From positions 370,836 through 434,835 of the forward strand of contig CAWEJX010000006.1 in the NCBI GenBank assembly GCA_963809485.1: a stretch of DNA of 64,000 nucleotides, given 5' to 3'. Both the position numbers and the translations under genes were made by a program. How positions within the stretch are numbered: position 1 is the first letter of the stretch; each line of letters begins with the position of its first letter. Source of the DNA: an uncultured Acidobacteriota bacterium (GTDB taxonomy: Bacteria; Acidobacteriota; UBA6911). This document shows, one piece after another, positions 19,860 to 27,760 of this stretch. The notes below the pieces were generated by a model, which had not been told where the DNA came from, did no database searches, and was given only the letters and a program-made list of their open reading frames with translations.

Positions 19860-20078
19860 GCTTTTGAATCCTTCCTTCACCGGTCCCCCGAGCCCGGCGA
19901 AGGCTGACGAGAAGCAGGTCAGCGACGGTCTCCGGTCGTCCCTGAGAAGTCATTCTCGCATGTATATATGCAGAAAGCCGTGCGAAAAAACAAGAAACTG
20001 GAAGGCCGAATGGCGATGCATTGGCAATCCCCCGTCTATTCCGGAGAATATGTGGAGTTCCGCTGCTGAGATAAGAAT

Positions 20079-20121
20079 TGACGCCGACATACGCTGAAGA
20101 AAACGCTGATTAACGCTGACA
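20079..20121 (+). repeat. ACGCTGA-unit intergenic repeat, copy B
   Basis: ACGCCGA/ACGCTGA at 20081, 20091, 20103 and 20113. Confidence 0.7.
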
Positions 20122-20323
20122 AGGGATTTGAGGATAAGCGTATGAAAGCAGACGGAGCTCCTGCAAACACTTCGAGCAGTTTGCAGTCAGGCATCCGCTT
20201 TTGCCAGAAGCTGAAGGTTGGCCTTGTGTTTCGCTATCGGCAAGGGCGTTGATGAAGCCGATGTGCCTGCAATGGACCAAGAGGAGTATACTTTGTTTTA
20301 AGGAAAGCCGAGGAGGTGCAACC

Positions 20324-20956
20324 ATGGAGGAGTACGAGAAAACCTATTACCATAGTCTGTACCAGCTGGCCGCAACGCTGAACTCAGCCCGTTCGCCGGA
20401 GAGCATTCTCCGCTCCATTGTAGAAAATGTCGCAAAAGCCATGGCCGCAAAAGGCTGTTCATTGCTTTTGCTTACGCCCAACAAAGAAGCGCTCCTTCGG
20501 ACTGCCGCCTATGGATTGAGTGATTGGTACGTCCGAATGGGCCCTGTATCGGCCGACAAGAGCATGTCGGAATCGCTTATGGGCAAATCCGTGGCGGTTT
20601 TCGATGCCACGACCGACGAAAGGGTTCAGTTCCGACCCCAGGTGAAGCAGGAGGGAATCGCCTCAATATTGAGTGTCCCCGTCAAGCTGAGGGAAGAAGT
20701 AGTCGGAGTGATGAGGGTGTATACATCCGAACCGCGCCGCTTCACGGATGCCGACATTAATTTTGCCGGCGCGGCCGCCAACTTCGGCGCCATCGCGCTG
20801 GAGAGCGCCAGGTTTTACCAGTTTCTTCAGAAGGACTACGACGATTTCAGGGAAGGGCTGCTGCAATGGCGCGCTGATCTGGGATACGAGTGGATGGCGG
20901 AGGAGTCCGTCATCCCTGCCGAAGAGGAAGGCCCCACCATGCCTCCCGGCGGGTAG
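20324..20956 (+). CDS. Stand-alone GAF domain protein
   Basis: KGCSLLLL...AYGLS...EGIASILSVPV..EVVGVMRVYTSEPRRFT...AIALE; RBS GAGGAGGT. Confidence 0.85.
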   Translation: MEEYEKTYYHSLYQLAATLNSARSPESILRSIVENVAKAMAAKGCSLLLLTPNKEALLRTAAYGLSDWYVRMGPVSADKSMSESLMGKSVAVFDATTDERVQFRPQVKQEGIASILSVPVKLREEVVGVMRVYTSEPRRFTDADINFAGAAANFGAIALESARFYQFLQKDYDDFREGLLQWRADLGYEWMAEESVIPAEEEGPTMPPGG

Positions 20957-21259
20957 TCGGGGCACGCGTCTTTCGGTCTCTCCCAAAAGCGAGTGAGGAT
21001 GGCTCTCCGAAGCTATCCTCACGTGGTACCTCCAGTATACCCGTGCCTACCTGCATTGTTTGTTCTTCCCGCGTATGTCGGAGGCCAGGATCCGTGGCAT
21101 TCACGGAACCGCTCCAAGCGGTTCACGATCAGGTTTTCGCCTTTGTCGGCCTTTCTTGCTCCACCCATAATTTTTTCGCTCACTTCCGGGCCTGTTCATT
21201 AATAAGGAGAGGGCGGGGGATCATTGCCGCCCGAAACAACCGCGGGAAAGGGGAATACC

Positions 21260-21805
21260 ATGGGAAAACGTGCGAGAGAGCGTCGGGAGAGACGTGCCAA
21301 GATGGATGCGAATAGGGCATTCGCCGGCTGTCGTAATGCAGGGCGGACTGCTTCCATCAGTGATTTTGATAACGAGCTGAACAAACTGGCGGGGGATGCA
21401 GCGTTCCAGGCATCATCGGATTATCCGGCCGAGATGAGGGAATCCGATCTGGAGGATATTCGTCAATTCGAGTCGGTCGGATCCGGCATCAGTCTTTTTG
21501 AGGGCCTGCAGCAGCGCGGCATGGTACTCCCGCATCCCGAAGGGCTGGATGAAGCGCAGAGCAAGCGCAAAGCCCTGGAAGTGCTGGGTGCGCTGGCGGA
21601 TCTGCGCATTTTCCTGATCGGATTCGAAAAGATGTCGGCCCGGCAGCTGTATGCGACGCTCTGGAACGAGACGCTCTGGGAAGCGTGCTATGTCAGGAAG
21701 CGCAATCCGTGGGCGATTACGATGATCGACCTTTCGCGCCGGAAACCGAGGTCGGGGATGCTCGGGGTCCTGGAAAAACTCAAAAAACCACTATCGGTTC
21801 ACTGA
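21260..21805 (+). CDS. Hypothetical protein
   Basis: 181 aa ORF with purine-rich RBS; no recognised family. Confidence 0.6.
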   Translation: MGKRARERRERRAKMDANRAFAGCRNAGRTASISDFDNELNKLAGDAAFQASSDYPAEMRESDLEDIRQFESVGSGISLFEGLQQRGMVLPHPEGLDEAQSKRKALEVLGALADLRIFLIGFEKMSARQLYATLWNETLWEACYVRKRNPWAITMIDLSRRKPRSGMLGVLEKLKKPLSVH

Positions 21806-21829
21806 AGCAGGCTCGGAATTTTCCTGGCC

Positions 21830-22312
21830 CTACAAGAGCTTTTTCTCAACCAACGAGATGGCTCTAAATCCGCATCTCTCGTAAAAACGGATGGCAGATT
21901 TGTTTTCGGCTCTTACATTGAGTGTAATGAAGGGCATTTGCCTTTCTCTTGCCCATTCTTCGAAGGAGTTCAGCAATAAAGCCCCAATTCCTTTATTCCT
22001 CTCGCTTTCGACAACGCCCAGACTGTCCACATAAGCCTGGCGGGGCGTCGTGAAGATTGGAGGCAGCTTCCGGAGTTCACCTAAAAGGAAGCCTATGATT
22101 TCTCCATCGCGCTCTGCGATGAGGGCTTTGCGAAGCCTGGATCGAACATGTCTTTCAAAATATTTCCTCCACATATCACGGGCGCCGGGAACCATGTCAA
22201 AATCGTGAGCGGATAAATTGCTGTGATAGGCCATAAACTCGTCCCAGGCAGGAAGGGTTTTTTGGCTGTCCTTTGTCCGCGCGTCTCTGATCACTACCAA
22301 TCCATGATCCAT
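21830..22312 (-). CDS. GNAT family acetyltransferase
   Basis: YVDSLGVVESERNKGIGALLL, LNVRAENKSAIRFYERCGF. Confidence 0.88.
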   Translation of the reverse strand: MDHGLVVIRDARTKDSQKTLPAWDEFMAYHSNLSAHDFDMVPGARDMWRKYFERHVRSRLRKALIAERDGEIIGFLLGELRKLPPIFTTPRQAYVDSLGVVESERNKGIGALLLNSFEEWARERQMPFITLNVRAENKSAIRFYERCGFRAISLVEKKLL

Positions 22313-22315
22313 TCG

Positions 22316-22561
22316 CTACTCCAGTCCGCATTTATGCAGCAGGCTATGGGCGCGTTCTTCTTCCTGGGGCATGACGTAAAAATACGCCCCTACCTTGGTG
22401 GTGCGAAAGAGCAAGCCGCTCTGGTAGGGTCCGGTTTCCACGACATAGTCGAGACTGCCTTCGTTGAAAGCCTTTTCGACGGCAAGGGCGTGTTTCAGGC
22501 GCCTTGCCATGTAGACAAGAACCAGTTCCTGGTCTTCAAAAAATTCCGGTTCGCGCCGCAT
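22316..22561 (-). CDS. Small hypothetical protein (DUF2007-like ferredoxin-fold pattern)
   Basis: 81 aa, LVLVY....A..VE..F....DY.V...FYV....EERA..LL; 3 bp upstream of the GNAT gene. Confidence 0.65.
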   Translation of the reverse strand: MRREPEFFEDQELVLVYMARRLKHALAVEKAFNEGSLDYVVETGPYQSGLLFRTTKVGAYFYVMPQEEERAHSLLHKCGLE

Positions 22562-22616
22562 GGACTCTTTGCAGGATGATGGGTTTTGAAGGGCCTATTC
22601 TGCCGGCTGCGCCGTC

Positions 22617-24341
22617 CTACTCGAATTCCTCATCGCTCGGCCATTCGGCGGGGCCGCGCTTCAGGCTGCTTTCGGCCTGGCCCCGACGAATACGTCCCCT
22701 GAGAACAAGCACGTCCCGGTAGTCGGACCAGTTGCTGACGACCATGTAAATGCCGAAAGCAAGCACCCCGAGCACCAGGATCGACACGATTGCCACGGCT
22801 CCGTAATGATACCCGGCCGTATGGGCATCCGGCTGGAAAAAGATGCGCTCGAAATTACGGCCGAAATTCATGCCGAAAAATCCGGTCAGGATGGCGCCGG
22901 CGCCGATCAGGAGGCTTAAAATGGCCAGACGGTTCACGGCATCTGTGTTGCGTGAAGCGGCATAGCTTTGCAGAGATGTGTTCAGCTTTTCGATCTCCTG
23001 GTCTACTTCGTTCTTGACCGTCTGAATCCGCAACGCGCGGCAGTGCAGGATGAAGTGCTCGAATTCCTCTTCCTTGTTGGCCAATTCGTCGAAATACCAG
23101 TAATTGGAGAAATGCAAAAATTCCGACCGCAGGTCACTGGCCAGTCGGACATTCCCCTTGCTGAGTTTTCCGTCTTCCCAGTCCCTGTAGATGCGCTTGG
23201 AGACGAGAGCGGTGCGTTCGGCGAAGTCCAGCAGCGTCGCACGATAAAACAGAGCAATCAGGGCCATCAGGTAGTAACGGGTGCTGAACATGCGGTGAAT
23301 GAGGAACCCTTCGCGCAAGGTGTGCTGGTCGCAATCGAATGCGCCGATGGTGGCGGTGATGTTGCTATAGCTGGTGTAGCCGTAATACGTCCCTGTGTGG
23401 GCCCACCTGTGATAAAGATGACGCTCCAGTTGTTTGCGGGTAAAATCGGGATCGTATCGATACGATTCCCCGTCGAGATCGACATACAAAAGCCGGCTTA
23501 AAAATATCCTGTAAGTTTCCGAATGCGCGAAATTTGCGGAGACGGAATCCGGATTCAGGCAGGCATAGGTGTAAACCAGCATCCGCTCGTCCAGGACCGG
23601 CTCGAACTCCTGCAGCGAGTAATCGCAAAAATAGAGCAGAGACGAAATCGTTCCTGCCAGGGGCGGCAGGTAGCCGATCAAAGCGGCTTTTTTAATTTCT
23701 TCCTCTGCAATGATTTGCCGGTGCCCTTCCTTTTCAACGATCAGCTGCATCTTCGACGGAGTCCGCCCTTCGCGGATCTGGCGCCCGCTGGACGGATAAA
23801 CCTTGCGAAACGCCTCGTTGATCCAGAGCGCGTCCGAAGCCGGCAGGTGGAAGGCCTCGACGCCGACCGACAGGATTCCGATGCCATTGGCGAACAGGAA
23901 TAGCCGCAGGTCCGTTATTTGTACCGAAGCGGACCGGCCTTTCACATCCTCCGCGTAGAACCAGAGCTTTCTGTCGGCGGGAATGGGCAGGGTAAAACAG
24001 CACAATAGCGCTTCCCGCTCCTCGGTTTTTTTCGCGACTTCACCCGTATCGAAGAACACCCGGCGCACATAAGGGTGGAAGAAGACCATGTCCTGAAAGG
24101 CCGGGGATTCCAAGTCGAAGCGGGCGTAGGGATCGCGGCGCCAGTAGCCCAGATGCTTCCGGAGAGGGCCCTGGGGACCTGTGTGGTGTGCGGCAATCCA
24201 TTCGTCCAGCCCGTCGATCCAATGGTTGTACTTGGCCCATAAATCCCTGTGGTTCTCGACCACGGTCACTTTATCGATCGAAAACGGGAAGAAAAAGTAT
24301 GTATGCAAATGAAGCAGTTCGATCGGATTTTGTCGCGCCAT
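22617..24341 (-). CDS. CorA-like membrane protein with large N-terminal soluble domain
   Basis: C-terminal TGFFGMNF signature between two TM helices; N-terminal HTYFFFPF motif; ~574 aa. Confidence 0.8.
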   Translation of the reverse strand: MARQNPIELLHLHTYFFFPFSIDKVTVVENHRDLWAKYNHWIDGLDEWIAAHHTGPQGPLRKHLGYWRRDPYARFDLESPAFQDMVFFHPYVRRVFFDTGEVAKKTEEREALLCCFTLPIPADRKLWFYAEDVKGRSASVQITDLRLFLFANGIGILSVGVEAFHLPASDALWINEAFRKVYPSSGRQIREGRTPSKMQLIVEKEGHRQIIAEEEIKKAALIGYLPPLAGTISSLLYFCDYSLQEFEPVLDERMLVYTYACLNPDSVSANFAHSETYRIFLSRLLYVDLDGESYRYDPDFTRKQLERHLYHRWAHTGTYYGYTSYSNITATIGAFDCDQHTLREGFLIHRMFSTRYYLMALIALFYRATLLDFAERTALVSKRIYRDWEDGKLSKGNVRLASDLRSEFLHFSNYWYFDELANKEEEFEHFILHCRALRIQTVKNEVDQEIEKLNTSLQSYAASRNTDAVNRLAILSLLIGAGAILTGFFGMNFGRNFERIFFQPDAHTAGYHYGAVAIVSILVLGVLAFGIYMVVSNWSDYRDVLVLRGRIRRGQAESSLKRGPAEWPSDEEFE

Positions 24342-24713
24342 GGTTGGGAATATTACCACCGCACGCGGCCACACCCAAACAATTACGGGCTATCCGGCGG
24401 TATATTTTGTATGGAAATCCCGGGTCCGGGCATTTAATGGGTCCCGGTTTTCAAGGACGCTGATTATGCTCCCGAACATGGGACCCTGTCGCATCTTTGC
24501 CCCGAAATTCCTTAAGGATGCAGCAGCGCGGCCATTCAGACGGTTATGGATATCATTGGCCCCGACAAGAGACTTGCAGCCCGTGGCCTGCAGCCTGTAA
24601 CCTGTGACCTGCGGCCTTCGGACAATGACTGCCGATTCTCACACTGTCCTGTTCCATGATTCCGGACAGCAAAGGCCTCACGATGCGCCGCGCACGGCAG
24701 CCTTTGATTTCTT

Positions 24714-25556
24714 ATGCTATATCTAATACTTGTTTCGATCTTGTGGGGATTCTCCTTCATACTCATTAAGGGGATACTTGTCCCCCTGGATTCCAATTTT
24801 GTCTCCTTTGCCAGGCTGCTGCTCTCCTTGCTTGTTTTTTTGCCCTTTGTGCGCATATCCGGCATCGCGGCGCCGGACAAGCTCCGGCTCATGTTTATCG
24901 GCGGCGTGCAATTCGGCCTGATGTATGTTGCTTACGTCGCGTCCTACCAGTACCTTCCTGCGCACGTCATCGCCCTGATGACAACCACGACTCCGTTGTT
25001 CGTTACGCTCTTGAACGACCTGTGCTCGAGGAGGTTTCACCTGACATTTCTGGCGGCTGCGCTGTTGGCTGTTGCCGGAGGAGCCGTCATACAGTTCCCC
25101 CACCAGTCTTCGTCGGCGAGCGCTGTCGGGGTGGTGCTTGTCCAGATATCCAACGCAGCCTTCGCTTACGGCCAGATCGCCTACAAAAGACTGATGGATT
25201 CGAGGCCTGCCCTGCGGGACAAAGACGTCTTCGGGCTCATGTACGGCGGGGCGGTTGTTGTTGCAGCCATATTCTTTTTGGCAACAATGGATTATGGCCG
25301 GATGCGGGTTCAGCCGGATCAATGGCTCGTCCTGCTGTATCTGGGCGTGGTGGCTTCGGGGCTGTGTTTTTTCCTGTGGAACCTTGGGGCCCGCAAGGTG
25401 AATGACGGGATGCTGGCAATCATGAACAACCTAAAAATTCCCATCGGGGTGGTGGCGAGCCTGGTGATACTCAAGGAAGGCACCGACTATGGCCGGCTGC
25501 TTGCCGGATGCGTTTTATTTGCCGCGGCACTGTGGGTAAACCGGTGGCACCGCTGA
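24714..25556 (+). CDS. EamA/DMT family transporter (YigM-like)
   Basis: LWGFSF, GGVQFGLMYVAY, YLGVVASGLCFFLWNLGA, AIMNNLKIP; ~10 TM segments. Confidence 0.9.
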   Translation: MLYLILVSILWGFSFILIKGILVPLDSNFVSFARLLLSLLVFLPFVRISGIAAPDKLRLMFIGGVQFGLMYVAYVASYQYLPAHVIALMTTTTPLFVTLLNDLCSRRFHLTFLAAALLAVAGGAVIQFPHQSSSASAVGVVLVQISNAAFAYGQIAYKRLMDSRPALRDKDVFGLMYGGAVVVAAIFFLATMDYGRMRVQPDQWLVLLYLGVVASGLCFFLWNLGARKVNDGMLAIMNNLKIPIGVVASLVILKEGTDYGRLLAGCVLFAAALWVNRWHR

Positions 25557-25726
25557 AAATTGGAAGGCTGTTTTACATACTTCGCCGGAGTCGAGGTCAA
25601 GGGCCCGGGAATGCAGCCTGGCTACTGGGGAATCCAGCTGCTTATGGATTTCAAGCCGGAATCCCCGTTCGCGGAAGTGTCGAACGCGGATTTCCGAAAA
25701 AATCCCGATTTGTTCGGCGAGGGTCA

Positions 25727-26007
25727 GCGAGCAAAAGCCGATGAGGCGCTTCCGATGGAGTTTTCTGCGGCGGCACTGTGGCAAACGCCCGATTTCTCAT
25801 ACCCTTCATCTCCTTGCCGCACGGCGCTTGCCACAGTGCCGCCGCAGAAAACTGTCCAGCTCGGAGCGCTGGCCCCTGCGGGGATCGGAACCGCCTCATC
25901 GGCTTTTGCCCGCGTAAGTCAGCGTTCAAGACCGGCGTAACTCGTGCAATCGCTTTGCGCGGTTCCAATCTTTCAAGGCCTCCGGCTTTGCCGGAGGTCC
26001 CTGACTG
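25727..26007. repeat. Long nested hairpin plus IS200/IS605-like end motif
   Basis: Perfect 26 bp IR 25759-25784 / 25828-25853; 30 bp IR with 2 mismatches 25727-25756 / 25884-25913; CCTCCGGCTTTGCCGGAGG at 25979-25997; 25877-26007 is repeated at 47383-47512. Confidence 0.85.
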
Positions 26008-26189
26008 GCAAAGAAGAATATGCCCAATTGATATTGCCATTTTTCCGGTTGGCAGCCTGGAAATGAACCCGAGAAGCCATCGGTATCCCGATTCACCGAT
26101 CCATGCACGTATCGCGGGACGCGGATCATCGATTCCTTCAGGCTCATGGACGTGCCATTCAGGCTGTCTATCAAGAGCGAGATAAGCAG

Positions 26190-27461
26190 TCAAACCTCCG
26201 CGTAGGCGCAGCGGAACCCGATGTCCTGGGCGATCCAGGAGCGCTCTTCCCGCATATACAGTTCCCACAGACTTGCCGTCCGGCCGTCGAACCAGGATCC
26301 GCCCTTGCACAGCATGCGTTCGCCGTAATTGCGCAGGAAGAACACCGGCTCCCGCTGCATGCCGTCGACAGGATACATGCCGAGCTGTTTCAGGAGCCTA
26401 TGCGGCGGAGCGCTTTCCGTATGCGTCATGCCGGCAAACGAAAACACGGTATACGCGCGGTGCGTTATGTCGGGATTCCTGCCTGTGTAATGCGGATTTT
26501 TGATCTCTGTCGAAAGGCAGGCGATGCTCTTGATATTGACAAAGTCCTCGTTTGAACGTCCGGGAATAGGACTGTCGAGCTTGTAGGTGCCGGGTGTGCC
26601 TGGCATCACGAGGGCGCCATCGGTCGAGATGGCGCGCCAGAGCGGGCTGTCGGGCCCCTCGTCCACATTCAACGCGCTGTCGTTGTCCGGGATAATCTGG
26701 ATCTCCCCGTTTTTAAGGCGCATCCCGGCAAGCGTATCCCAGAGATTCCCGATGAGGTCGAAAATCCCGAATGCCGTGCCGTCGTGGGACCAGGTGTCGG
26801 GTCCGGTCCCCGTCAGCGTCGGCCACATGTGCATATCAAAGCGAATACCTTTGAACGACCCCATATACCGGCGGATGGCGTGCTCGTGTTTGTTGAAAAA
26901 ATCGCTGCCCGAATTGCTGTTTCCGTGCGGAAAATGACCGTTTTTGCGGCACCAGTGCGCGATCGCCATATATTCCGCGTTCGTCATCAGATGCCAGCCC
27001 CGGCCTTTAGCGGCGCAGGCGGCCTTCATCTCGCCGCGCGTGTACATGCTGGCCGGGTTGCGGCCGGGAAGCGAATACCCGCGCCCGTGTTCCATGACAT
27101 TCAGGTACTTGCTGACATAAATCGACTCAAGCACCTGGCCGCCGCCGACGAACGCCGAACAGGGCTCCTCCGGCGCACCCTCCAGCACGTCCGACCAGAG
27201 GAACATCGGGATGCGCACCATGACCGACGGGAGCCCCAGGTCGTCAAACAGCAGCGTGTTTTTGCCGCCGCTGGCCGCCTCCAGCGCAGCTTTCTCGGCC
27301 TTCCAGTTGGCAGGATCGGCGGGAGGCGGAGCGGGCGCCGGGATATACCCCGGCTTCGGACGCTTCGCGAAAACGCGGAAGCCCATATCGTCGATATACT
27401 CGGTCTCGTAATGCTCATAGGCCTCCACCGGCAGAATGACGGGCGTATGTTCCGTGGACAT
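26190..27461 (-). CDS. C-type-lectin-fold (FGE/Mtd-like) protein resembling phage DGR target proteins
   Basis: EAASGGKNTLLFDDLGLPSVMVRIP, IYVSKY, GWHLMTNAEY, GIFDLIGNLWD and a C-terminal GGSW...RS.....IGFRCA VR-like motif; RBS GGAGGG. Confidence 0.8.
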   Translation of the reverse strand: MSTEHTPVILPVEAYEHYETEYIDDMGFRVFAKRPKPGYIPAPAPPPADPANWKAEKAALEAASGGKNTLLFDDLGLPSVMVRIPMFLWSDVLEGAPEEPCSAFVGGGQVLESIYVSKYLNVMEHGRGYSLPGRNPASMYTRGEMKAACAAKGRGWHLMTNAEYMAIAHWCRKNGHFPHGNSNSGSDFFNKHEHAIRRYMGSFKGIRFDMHMWPTLTGTGPDTWSHDGTAFGIFDLIGNLWDTLAGMRLKNGEIQIIPDNDSALNVDEGPDSPLWRAISTDGALVMPGTPGTYKLDSPIPGRSNEDFVNIKSIACLSTEIKNPHYTGRNPDITHRAYTVFSFAGMTHTESAPPHRLLKQLGMYPVDGMQREPVFFLRNYGERMLCKGGSWFDGRTASLWELYMREERSWIAQDIGFRCAYAEV

Positions 27462-27760
27462 GACGCGTACCCTCCTATGGATCATCCTTGTCTATTTGCA
27501 GTTTCTCCATGCGCCGATAGGAAAAATTATCCCATGTTTGAAAAAAATGCTCCAGTATCAGGCCTTCTTTTGTTTCGGATAAAATACATGCGCGAAAAAT
27601 AGCAAGAAAATATAATCAACTGCAACAGAACCACCAGGCATCTTGCCGCACATTTTCAAATGCGGGAATTAGGCTGAAAAAGGACAAAGTTACCTATGCT
27701 GGCCGAGAAGCCATTGATAGCTCCCACGAAGTTACGTTGTGGGAATGGTGCCATCTGCGT

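Follow-up and report, generated by a model that had tools for sequence, protein, structure and literature searches.

Introduction

To our knowledge, the CRISPR-associated CorA proteins are the only known receptors of the SAM-AMP messenger. The excerpts of Chi et al. [quoted passage not shown] According to the same excerpts, the type III-B CorA of Bacteroides fragilis is toxic when expressed alone, and two pairs of residues, RR (R152/R153) and DD (D219/D220), are needed in this protein, as judged by mutagenesis.

Here we describe a CorA homolog, P0001, encoded in a 64,000-nucleotide stretch of DNA (the window) from an uncultured Acidobacteriota bacterium. We propose that P0001 is a stand-alone, CRISPR-independent, ligand-gated channel of the CorA type, with a putative RK/DE pocket, that works as a single-gene unit, a reading to which we give a probability of roughly 60%.

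Results

Locus and gene boundaries

The features of the locus are listed in Table 1. An upstream GTG at position 24374 would extend P0001 to 585 aa; the ATG start was retained because the orthologs start at the ATG position. The P0001 gene is separated by 55 nt from an 81-aa ORF, itself 3 nt from a GNAT gene, and the three are co-oriented. The ORF coordinates thus agree with an earlier sequence-only reading of this DNA, which had seen a ~574-aa protein followed by a small gene and a GNAT with these same gaps, and the acetyltransferase assignment was upheld by Pfam.

Table 1. Coordinates of the P0001 locus in the window
Feature	Position	Strand	Basis or remark
CorA-like channel gene (P0001)	22617..24341	minus	574 aa from ATG, stop codon included
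N-terminal sensor domain, predicted cytoplasmic, ~residues 1-440	23022..24341	minus	PADLOC profile coverage, signature residues
R179-K180, putative pocket pair (RR in CRISPR-type CorA)	23802..23807	minus	Codons checked
D251-E252, putative pocket pair (DD in CRISPR-type CorA)	23586..23591	minus	Codons checked
Pore region: TM1, GMN (22866-22874), ~20-residue loop, TM2	22725..22943	minus	Hydropathy, codons, Pfam and PDB CorA matches
81-aa ORF, directly downstream of the P0001 gene	22316..22561	minus	Lineage-restricted
GNAT acetyltransferase gene, 160 aa	21830..22312	minus	Pfam Acetyltransf_1, E 2.1e-20; outside the feature

The surroundings of the P0001 gene in the window are metabolic (UxaE, SDR, GAF, EamA and MFS), with no defence island, and the flanks of its orthologs are metabolic as well. 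A promoter and terminator scan gave a signal no better than that of shuffled sequences, and an operon boundary was not obtained. A riboswitch or leader was also considered; the Rfam scan of positions 20000-27000 (E<=1) returned two sub-threshold eukaryotic matches, to a miRNA and a snoRNA, which were taken as chance. It should be noted that four sequencing runs contributed zero reads over positions 21800-24450, which says nothing for or against expression.

A CRISPR-type sensor domain joined to a CorA-type pore

P0001 matched the PADLOC CorA-like profile PDLC01174 with an E-value of 1.6e-57, residues 77-529 aligning to positions 49-435 of the 446 in the profile, and a second CorA-like profile of the PDLC01174/PDLC01043 family with an E-value of 2e-50. 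The same CorA-like match was found in other members of its clade (6.9e-56 and 5.6e-25, respectively, for P0241 and P0245), and for P0005, a homolog 86% identical to P0001, the ESM Atlas gave CorA-like clusters only. The likeness to type III CRISPR CorA effectors, noticed by eye in the sequence-only reading, is therefore a real homology that takes in both sensor and pore.

Matches to canonical CorA were confined to the C-terminal end of the protein. Pfam CorA (PF01544) covered residues 445-534 only (E 5.4e-7; profile positions 210-289 of 292), and in a search of the PDB with the family profile only positions 420-508 matched the CorA of Thermotoga maritima and its relatives (E ~7e-7); a single-sequence PDB search with P0001 gave 0 matches. 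Judged by these profile matches, the N-terminal domain shares homology with the CRISPR-associated CorA sensor, and none with the cytoplasmic alpha/beta/alpha and funnel domain of canonical CorA. Its predicted boundary at residue 440 is approximate. The PDB sequence and profile searches found no solved structure of a CRISPR-CorA sensor domain.

A Kyte-Doolittle scan of P0001 revealed two hydrophobic segments only, at residues ~467-493 and 509-539, with the GMN motif at residues 490-492, as verified at the codon level. The scan and the extent of the PF01544 match bear out the early description of a GMN signature and two transmembrane helices at the C-terminus only. GMN was kept in all 43 rows of the clade in our alignment; in the 37 other rows, G was found in 29, M in 24 and N in 27. 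A separate gene of this genome encodes a canonical CorA (E 1.9e-63), and P0001 is therefore not the housekeeping copy.

Signature residues and the putative pocket pairs

The four motifs singled out in the sequence-only reading are all present, HTYFFFPF at positions 24282-24305 together with YHRWAHTGTYYGYTSYS, YYLMALIALFYRATLLDF and FLHFSNYWYFDE, and they sit on columns conserved family-wide, i.e. at 90% or more across 80 relatives. These columns are F16, P19 and F20; Y310, R312, W313, G317, G321, Y325 and S326; Y356, R367 and F373; and F411, N413, F417 and E419. Outside the motifs, N175, D251, R253, M254 and D288 reach the same level of conservation, and W67, R179 and F417 are invariant over the 80 rows. 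The sensor residues common to P0001 and its CRISPR-type relatives are W67, N175, R179, D251, R253, M254, D288, Y310, W313 and G321.

Two pairs of adjacent residues deserve particular attention. R179 is kept in 80/80 rows, and the position that follows it is K in 43/43 clade rows vs. R in 34/37 of the others. D251 is similarly kept in 79/80 rows, followed by E in 42/43 clade rows vs. D in 32/37 of the others. These pairs would be the counterparts of R152/R153 and D219/D220 of B. fragilis CorA, a correspondence drawn from motif position and not from direct alignment; the mapping rests on a Parabacteroides homolog (RR at 149-150, DD at 220-221) and on the excerpted text of PMC10600005. A search with the Parabacteroides CorA homolog gave no row named as B. 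fragilis among the 120 matches listed. The uniform change from RR/DD to RK/DE in the putative pocket suggests a ligand other than that of the RR/DD relatives.

CRISPR machinery in the genome and near orthologs

The assembly that carries P0001 is a MAG of 21 contigs, 95.67% complete with 7.3% contamination. Cas10 profiles TIGR02577, TIGR02578 and PF22335 gave no match in it at E<=1, nor did short Cas10 and Csm3 queries; Cas1 was not found and there were no array-like repeats. About 4% of the genome is missing from the MAG, so a cas locus could lie there and its absence is unproven. The genome-wide cas10 search advised in the sequence-only reading thus returned none in the assembly, and the CRISPR-independence proposed there is supported as far as this assembly shows. 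The same reading had reported no cas10, NrN phosphodiesterase or array in the window, which is confirmed for the region of the window examined. The NrN profile PDLC01149 had no match in the genome, but its positive control matched nowhere either. No DHH domain was detected in P0001 itself by Pfam or PADLOC.

A similar picture was obtained around the orthologs. No conserved neighbour was found across 45 ortholog loci. For the 121 ORFs closest to the orthologs at 43 loci, the PADLOC families listed (25 of 28) included no cas or NrN family and no DHH_CorA, and each listed family was matched by at most 2 of these ORFs. Of the 9 same-genus genomes with an ortholog that were searched, 1 had a clear Cas10; genomes with CRISPR-type CorA relatives had Cmr2 in 37 of 38 cases, 34 of them above the cut-off.

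The neighbouring 81-aa and GNAT genes

The 81-aa gene lies downstream of CorA in 6/10 same-genus loci and in 0/38 loci outside the genus. It adjoins CorA in all 7 genomes that have both, is found in 5 genomes of the genus that lack CorA (G002, G007, G012, G015 and G020), and is not beside CorA in loci L013, L014 and L020. In the genomes without CorA, its neighbour is often an isopropylmalate-dehydrogenase-like gene, and L020 has this gene close to CorA; its presence in both settings points to shared synteny. The 81-aa protein, for which the sequence-only reading had proposed a ferredoxin fold, has 118 homologs, all 52-100% identical, and no match in Pfam, NCBIfam, PADLOC or the PDB profiles (0 at E<=10 in the PDB family-profile search). 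Its gene has a dN/dS of 0.09-0.15.

A GNAT homolog was beside CorA in none of the 10 same-genus orthologs. Indeed, at the closest locus, with a 95%-identical CorA, the 81-aa gene is directly followed by a 193-aa gene instead of the GNAT gene. These neighbourhood counts argue against the three-gene module of CorA, 81-aa protein and GNAT that the sequence-only reading had inferred. The 81-aa gene is adjacent to the channel gene but is probably not a functional part of it.

Phylogeny and selection

The P0001 clade is monophyletic (SH-aLRT 100), almost confined to Acidobacteriota, and sits on a long stem of 1.43 substitutions per site. Its sister groups include 4 DHH(NrN)-CorA fusions. In the representative search, the NrN(DHH)-CorA fusions and the CorA of type III-D/III-D2 loci had the highest E-values outside the clade, with 28-37% identity over the aligned part. 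A further NrN-CorA fusion directly precedes a type III-D-like cas operon with a short Cas10 (519 aa) and Cas7/Cas5 fusions. For the closest outgroup, P0266, one metagenome scan for its contig yielded only a 25%-identical relative. The tree is unrooted, and the clade could therefore be either a derived (domesticated) or the ancestral form.

The P0001 gene is maintained under purifying selection, with a dN/dS of 0.04-0.12 against 8 same-genus orthologs (dS was saturated for the ninth pair). The ortholog is also better conserved than its syntenic flanking genes (95% vs. 80-94% in L012; 84% vs. 71% in L021). A pseudogene or decaying remnant was ruled out by these dN/dS values and by intact ORFs in all 10 same-genus loci. 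Orthologs are carried by 10/24 same-genus genomes and by 0/16 genomes in other families of the class, a patchy distribution of the kind expected of accessory or defence genes, with which a physiological reading is compatible as well.

Discussion

A proposed stand-alone, ligand-gated channel

In the reading that we favour, P0001 joins a large cytoplasmic sensor domain to a two-helix CorA-type pore with an intact GMN filter, and by homology would most likely be pentameric. Binding of a small molecule by the sensor domain would open the cation-conducting pore. Type III machinery was not detected in the genome, so Cas10 would not be the source of the signal in this lineage. The gene would act singly, the 81-aa and GNAT genes being neighbours by synteny rather than partners, and its output may be either defence, through membrane depolarisation, or a physiological cation flux. 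What survives of the earlier interpretation is thus the homology to CRISPR-type CorA and the independence from CRISPR, whereas the three-gene module does not stand up to the neighbourhood counts. Much more tentatively, the clade might represent a CRISPR effector that turned into a self-sufficient signal-gated channel or was one from the start, its pocket, retuned to RK/DE, sensing a Cas10-independent adenylate- or SAM-derived molecule, either an endogenous messenger of the Acidobacteriota or a phage metabolite.

Other explanations have to be weighed against a stand-alone ligand-gated channel. The invariant GMN, the CorA-type transmembrane hairpin and the database name 'CorA family divalent cation transporter' would all fit an ordinary CorA transporter of Mg2+/Co2+ whose regulatory domain is unusually long. 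We nevertheless consider this quite unlikely: the N-terminal ~440 residues match the CRISPR-type profile and not the canonical CorA domain of Pfam or the PDB, the genome has its canonical CorA elsewhere, and the P0001 ortholog is missing from 14/24 same-genus genomes. The single gene might instead encode an abortive-infection channel against phages, one that depolarises the membrane on sensing infection, either directly or via a phage-derived molecule. Descent of the clade from immune effectors, or a sister relationship to them, its patchy presence within the genus and the toxicity reported for B. fragilis CorA alone are consistent with such a role. We regard it as unlikely all the same, given the metabolic neighbourhood and ortholog flanks, a tblastn search that found no phage or plasmid homolog of P0001, and a very high conservation and low dN/dS unlike those of typical fast-turnover defence genes; furthermore, the GMN is invariant in the clade but often degenerate in CRISPR effectors.

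The CRISPR-linked ancestry of the CorA family also raises the question of whether P0001 acts in trans as the effector of a type III CRISPR system encoded at another site in the genome, answering to SAM-AMP or a related signal made by Cas10 in the manner of B. fragilis CorA. In Bryobacterales, a short-Cas10/Csm2-5 operon is present in 29/31 ortholog carriers vs. 43/120 non-carriers, and none of the 4 loci examined has an effector gene adjacent to this operon. However, the short Cas10 occurs in 114/121 genomes at the family level in this order irrespective of CorA, so the co-occurrence comes down to descent, and a functional Cas10-CorA link in Bryobacterales was dropped after this control. CorA and the short Cas10 are never adjacent (the distances on shared contigs are 111 kb and 717 kb), Cas10, Csm3, Cas1 and an array all went undetected in the genome of P0001 itself, and 8/9 same-genus carriers are likewise without a clear Cas10. 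A trans-acting effector is thus highly improbable in our judgement. We give still less credence to a CRISPR-independent signalling or abortive-infection module made up of CorA, the 81-aa protein and the GNAT, which we consider extremely improbable. It would explain the co-orientation and short gaps of the three genes, and the adjacency of CorA and the 81-aa gene in 7/7 genomes with both, but it is largely refuted by the neighbourhood counts given above, and the three proteins had no PADLOC match beyond CorA-like, save a weak one for the GNAT.

Significance

A large conserved clade that has kept the sensor and an intact GMN pore while shedding its CRISPR links would amount to a natural experiment on sensor recognition and, with its many well-conserved orthologs, would give structural and ligand studies a single-gene target. 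The clade also bears on the question of whether immune effectors are put to other uses by domestication or have themselves been recruited from such uses. If sensing is independent of Cas10, P0001 would bring to light a way of signalling in which the CorA sensor fold works outside CRISPR; an ancestral position of the clade would in addition show where the CorA effector of type III systems was recruited from. At the level of annotation, the name 'CorA family divalent cation transporter' given in databases is corrected for the P0001 clade.

Comparison with known systems

The type III-B CorA of B. fragilis (CorA-1 cluster), as described in the excerpts of PMC10600005, likewise has a large N-terminal soluble sensor and a C-terminal two-helix CorA-like domain; both proteins fall under the same PADLOC CorA-like profiles, and P0001 shares signature residues with its CRISPR-linked relatives, including the first residue of both the RR and DD pairs. 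P0001 differs from B. fragilis CorA in its RK/DE pairs, with only ~20-25% identity, and is ~70 residues longer; an insert near residues 29-60 is specific to its clade, and the C-terminal tail is conserved. Unlike the B. fragilis protein, it has no cas10 or array nearby or elsewhere in the assembly, and no gene for NrN, DEDD or a SAM-AMP lyase next to it. In the tree, the closest relatives outside the clade are the NrN(DHH)-CorA fusions and the CorA of type III-D/III-D2 loci (described in the excerpts consulted of PMC13294483 and PMC12669027), from which P0001 is set apart by its lack of a DHH domain and by belonging to a long-stemmed clade that is not cas-linked. With canonical CorA, such as that of T. 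maritima (PDB 2IUB, 4I0U and 4EEB), only the TM1-GMN-TM2 region can be aligned; the cytoplasmic domains are unrelated by sequence and the proteins differ in length (574 vs. ~320-370 aa). Finally, Cam1, Csx23 and Csx28, as presented in the excerpts of PMC11229360 and PMC10600005, belong to folds and families unrelated to P0001, and it is by analogy only that they follow the same logic, that of a ligand sensor coupled to a membrane-perturbing domain.

The 574-aa protein is by sequence a CRISPR-type CorA

The sequence-only reading had described this gene correctly: the three minus-strand ORFs are co-oriented with the spacing it gave (gaps of 55 nt between the CorA-like and 81-aa genes and 3 nt between the latter and the GNAT gene), and the CorA-like protein (P0001) has its GMN motif at residues 490-492 and only two membrane segments, both C-terminal (~467-493 and ~509-539 by hydropathy). 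An alternative GTG at 24374 would lengthen the protein by 11 residues; the ATG position is the start in orthologs. Purifying selection on the gene is strong, with dN/dS of 0.04-0.12 in comparisons with 8 same-genus orthologs (dS was saturated in a ninth), and the gene is conserved more strongly than its syntenic flanks.

The sole Pfam CorA match of P0001 covers residues 445-534 (E 5.4e-7). A profile of 80 relatives (43 rows from the clade of P0001 and its Acidobacteriota orthologs, 37 from other relatives) matched PDB entries for T. maritima CorA and related proteins at positions 420-508 only (E ~7e-7), and a single-sequence PDB search with P0001 gave no match. The two PADLOC "CorA-like" profiles, those recognising CorA as an accessory protein at type III CRISPR loci, both match residues 77-529 (E 1.6e-57 and 2e-50), and the four motifs picked out by eye in the sequence-only reading fall on columns that are either invariant or conserved in 90% or more of the 80 relatives. 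The homology to type III CRISPR CorA effectors proposed there thus holds for both sensor domain and pore, and its sequence places P0001 in the CRISPR-type CorA family. GMN is present in 43/43 clade rows; among the 37 others, the G is retained in 29, the M in 24 and the N in 27.

Coordinates of the genes and loci discussed (window positions unless a locus or contig is named)
Feature	Position	Strand	Basis or remark
CorA-like ORF (P0001), 574 aa from ATG	22617-24341	minus	ORF and translation
81-aa ORF	22316-22561	minus	ORF and translation; also L026, L027, L029, L031, L032, L034
GNAT ORF, 160 aa	21830-22312	minus	Pfam Acetyltransf_1, E 2.1e-20
Overlapping small genes, 70 and 162 aa	27761-28442	minus	DUF4160 in the 70-aa product (E 1.8e-6); no Pfam match in the other
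431-aa ORF	26190-27485	minus	no Pfam match at E<=1e-3
Short Cas10-Csm2-5 operon, type III-A-like	L189:4926-9905 (G090:C16)		also L190, L191, L192
NrN(DHH)-CorA fusion (920 aa), short Cas10, Cas7-Cas5 fusion, further Cas7	L199:9011-18913		Deltaproteobacteria MAG
Tandem arrays of the genome holding the window	C11:4287-4536; C19:41522-41820		outside the window

An Acidobacteriota clade with an altered putative pocket

Of 698 homologs returned by a word-index search with P0001, the 120 listed show 59-97% identity and lengths of 514-586 aa; the organisms named among them are Acidobacteriota, Bryobacteraceae or Terriglobia. Among 1.84 billion representatives, 1473 matched at E<=1e-3, with only about five full-length clusters more than 40% identical to P0001; below 40% came proteins of 490-690 aa (20-36% identity) and of 780-900 aa, the latter matching by their C-terminal part only and being DHH(NrN)-CorA fusions (PADLOC DHH_CorA). 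Family-level orthologs stood at 42 loci of the genome contig collection, under titles naming Acidobacteriota (UBA6911 lineage, Bryobacteraceae, Solibacteraceae, Acidobacteriaceae, Terriglobales). Two off-lineage titles, Arcobacter sp. and Acidimicrobiia MAGs (L081 and L049; orthologs 54% and 61% identical), may stem from misbinning and not from transfer; the genome titled 'Arcobacter' (G123) also holds a Bryobacterales-type short Cas10. All genomes compared are MAGs. The gene occurs in 10 of 24 other genomes of the window's genus (75-95% identity, no internal stops) and in none of 16 from other families of the same class. In an unrooted maximum-likelihood tree of 51 rows, built by a quick method, the clade is monophyletic (SH-aLRT 100, stem length 1.43); its sister is one orphan protein, P0266 (SH-aLRT 96), followed by four NrN fusions together with the P0301 group (SH-aLRT 98).

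Chi et al. 2023 (PMC10600005) place R152/R153 and D219/D220 of B. fragilis CorA at a putative SAM-AMP site and report that R152A/R153A and D219A/D220A abolish function. Two motifs mark the CRISPR-type relatives: GRR(I/Y)P, which is invariant, and IDDRM. The mapping rests on a Parabacteroides CorA rather than on the B. fragilis sequence itself; in the former, RR and DD lie at 149-150 and 220-221, from which we infer that they are the counterparts of the B. fragilis pairs. P0001 has R179-K180 and D251-E252 here. R179 is kept in 80/80 rows and D251 in 79/80, whereas position 180 is K in 43/43 clade rows vs. R in 34/37 others, and position 252 is E in 42/43 vs. D in 32/37. With the first residue of each pair conserved and the second switched clade-wide, the putative pocket appears to be retained in the clade yet uniformly altered.

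The CorA gene stands alone

A gene-neighbourhood check did not bear out the unit of CorA, 81-aa and GNAT genes that the first reading had proposed: the GNAT lies beside CorA at 0/10 same-genus loci and the 81-aa gene follows it at 6/10, the other four having downstream an amidohydrolase (two), a response-regulator/formate-nitrite-transporter gene (one) or a contig edge (one). The 81-aa gene occurs in 13/30 genomes of the genus. Of 24 searched for both genes, six have the two, always adjacent, four CorA only, five the 81-aa gene only and nine neither. Where CorA is missing, the 81-aa gene often adjoins an isopropylmalate-dehydrogenase-like gene. Such a gene also stands close to CorA in L020, so that the adjacency points to shared synteny and not to function. 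Searches of Pfam, NCBIfam, PADLOC and the PDB gave no match for the 81-aa protein, whose narrow family comprises 118 homologs at 52-100% identity; its dN/dS of 0.09-0.15 indicates purifying selection.

All-against-all clustering of the flanking ORFs of 45 ortholog loci, our own included, gave no recurrent neighbour of CorA other than the 81-aa gene (7/45, none outside the genus) and a generic SDR cluster (10/45, at variable distance). For the ORFs closest to CorA (121 at 43 loci), no PADLOC family had more than two ORFs, and no cas or NrN family was among the 25 listed of the 28 PADLOC families matched; by Pfam, SDR came top (6/121), ahead of a mixture of metabolic and transport families. The gene is flanked in the window by UxaE, SDR, GAF, EamA, MFS and DUF4160 genes. 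It is a singleton outside any defence island. The overlapping DUF4160 pair is laid out like a toxin-antitoxin pair.

Cas10 in the clade's genomes

Searching the genome for cas10, a check suggested with the sequence-only reading, found none: the assembly (6.04 Mb, 21 contigs, 95.67% complete, 7.32% contamination) has no Cmr2, Csm1 or Cas10 palm2 match at E<=1, no Cas1 and no spaced-repeat arrays. A k-mer scan picked up two tandem repeats only, with ~80-100-nt units and no unique spacers; they are not CRISPR arrays.

Across 45 ortholog-bearing genomes, Cmr2 exceeded the cut-off in four and Csm1 in three, with a clear Cas10 in one of the nine same-genus genomes. Unexpectedly, sub-threshold Csm1 matches appeared in 33/45. 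In G090, one such genome, the match is a five-gene operon in which Csm2, Csm3, Csm4 and Csm5 come after a 486-aa Cas10 that keeps an intact GGDD and lacks an HD domain; the operon is conserved in 4/4 loci examined and has no CRISPR-like repeats within ~5 kb. Of 151 sampled genomes of G090's order, 72 carry short Cas10 and 31 a member of the CorA clade; 29 of these 31 have both. The apparent link was rejected, since short Cas10 is present in 114/121 sampled genomes of G090's family (37-74% identity); the overlap reflects only common descent. No case of adjacency between the two genes was seen, and the genome holding the window has neither short Cas10 nor its Csm3. We conclude that the CorA clade is independent of Cas10.

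The short Cas10-Csm2-5 operon is itself unusual, a near-core, apparently vertical type III effector module without adjacent effector gene or array, and merits separate study. Cas1 is found in only 72/121 genomes of the family; many of its matches sit in ~585-620-aa open frames, about twice the usual length, which suggests a Cas1 fusion.

The relatives of alignment A3 (Desulfobacterota, Campylobacterota, Bacteroidota, Clostridia) are CRISPR-linked: they have Cmr2 in 37/38 genomes, over cut-off in 34, often on the same contig as CorA and within ~15 kb. A profile of the P0301 group led to an NrN-CorA fusion that lies immediately upstream of a 519-aa short Cas10 and III-D-type Cas7/Cas5 genes. According to a review, III-D loci do not encode any known SAM-AMP-cleaving enzyme; this locus, by contrast, does carry an enzyme of that type (NrN), fused to CorA.

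A proposed ligand-gated channel and its rivals

We give a probability of roughly 60% to P0001 being a pentameric, ligand-gated, cation-conducting CorA-type channel whose sensor responds to a small molecule that, in this lineage, has a source other than Cas10. Such a molecule would reach the sensor domain, whose response would open the cation-conducting pore of the pentamer. Because GMN is invariant, dN/dS low and the contexts metabolic, we lean towards a physiological or domesticated output. These same features weigh against a single-gene defence role, which immune ancestry and patchy presence across genomes would favour and which we consider doubtful. That P0001, with its invariant GMN, is a plain Mg2+ transporter seems distinctly unlikely; a normal CorA is encoded elsewhere in the genome (PF01544, E 1.9e-63).

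That P0001 acts in trans for a type III system hidden elsewhere in the genome, to which the co-occurrence with short Cas10 might have pointed, is very unlikely given the independence of the clade from Cas10. Least credible is a module in which CorA, the 81-aa protein and the GNAT work together: the 81-aa gene is CorA's neighbour in part of the genus, the GNAT at none of the ten other same-genus loci.

Comparison with known CorA systems

We found no description of a stand-alone CorA clade in the accessible text of the literature on CorA, SAM-AMP and type III CRISPR (PMC10600005, PMC11229360, PMC13294483, PMC12255297, PMC12669027, bioRxiv 10.1101/270033), whose supplementary material may hold one. 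At the level of the system, P0001 lacks both the cas10 linkage and the linked degrading enzyme of CRISPR CorA effectors. Its likeness to canonical CorA is confined to the pore.
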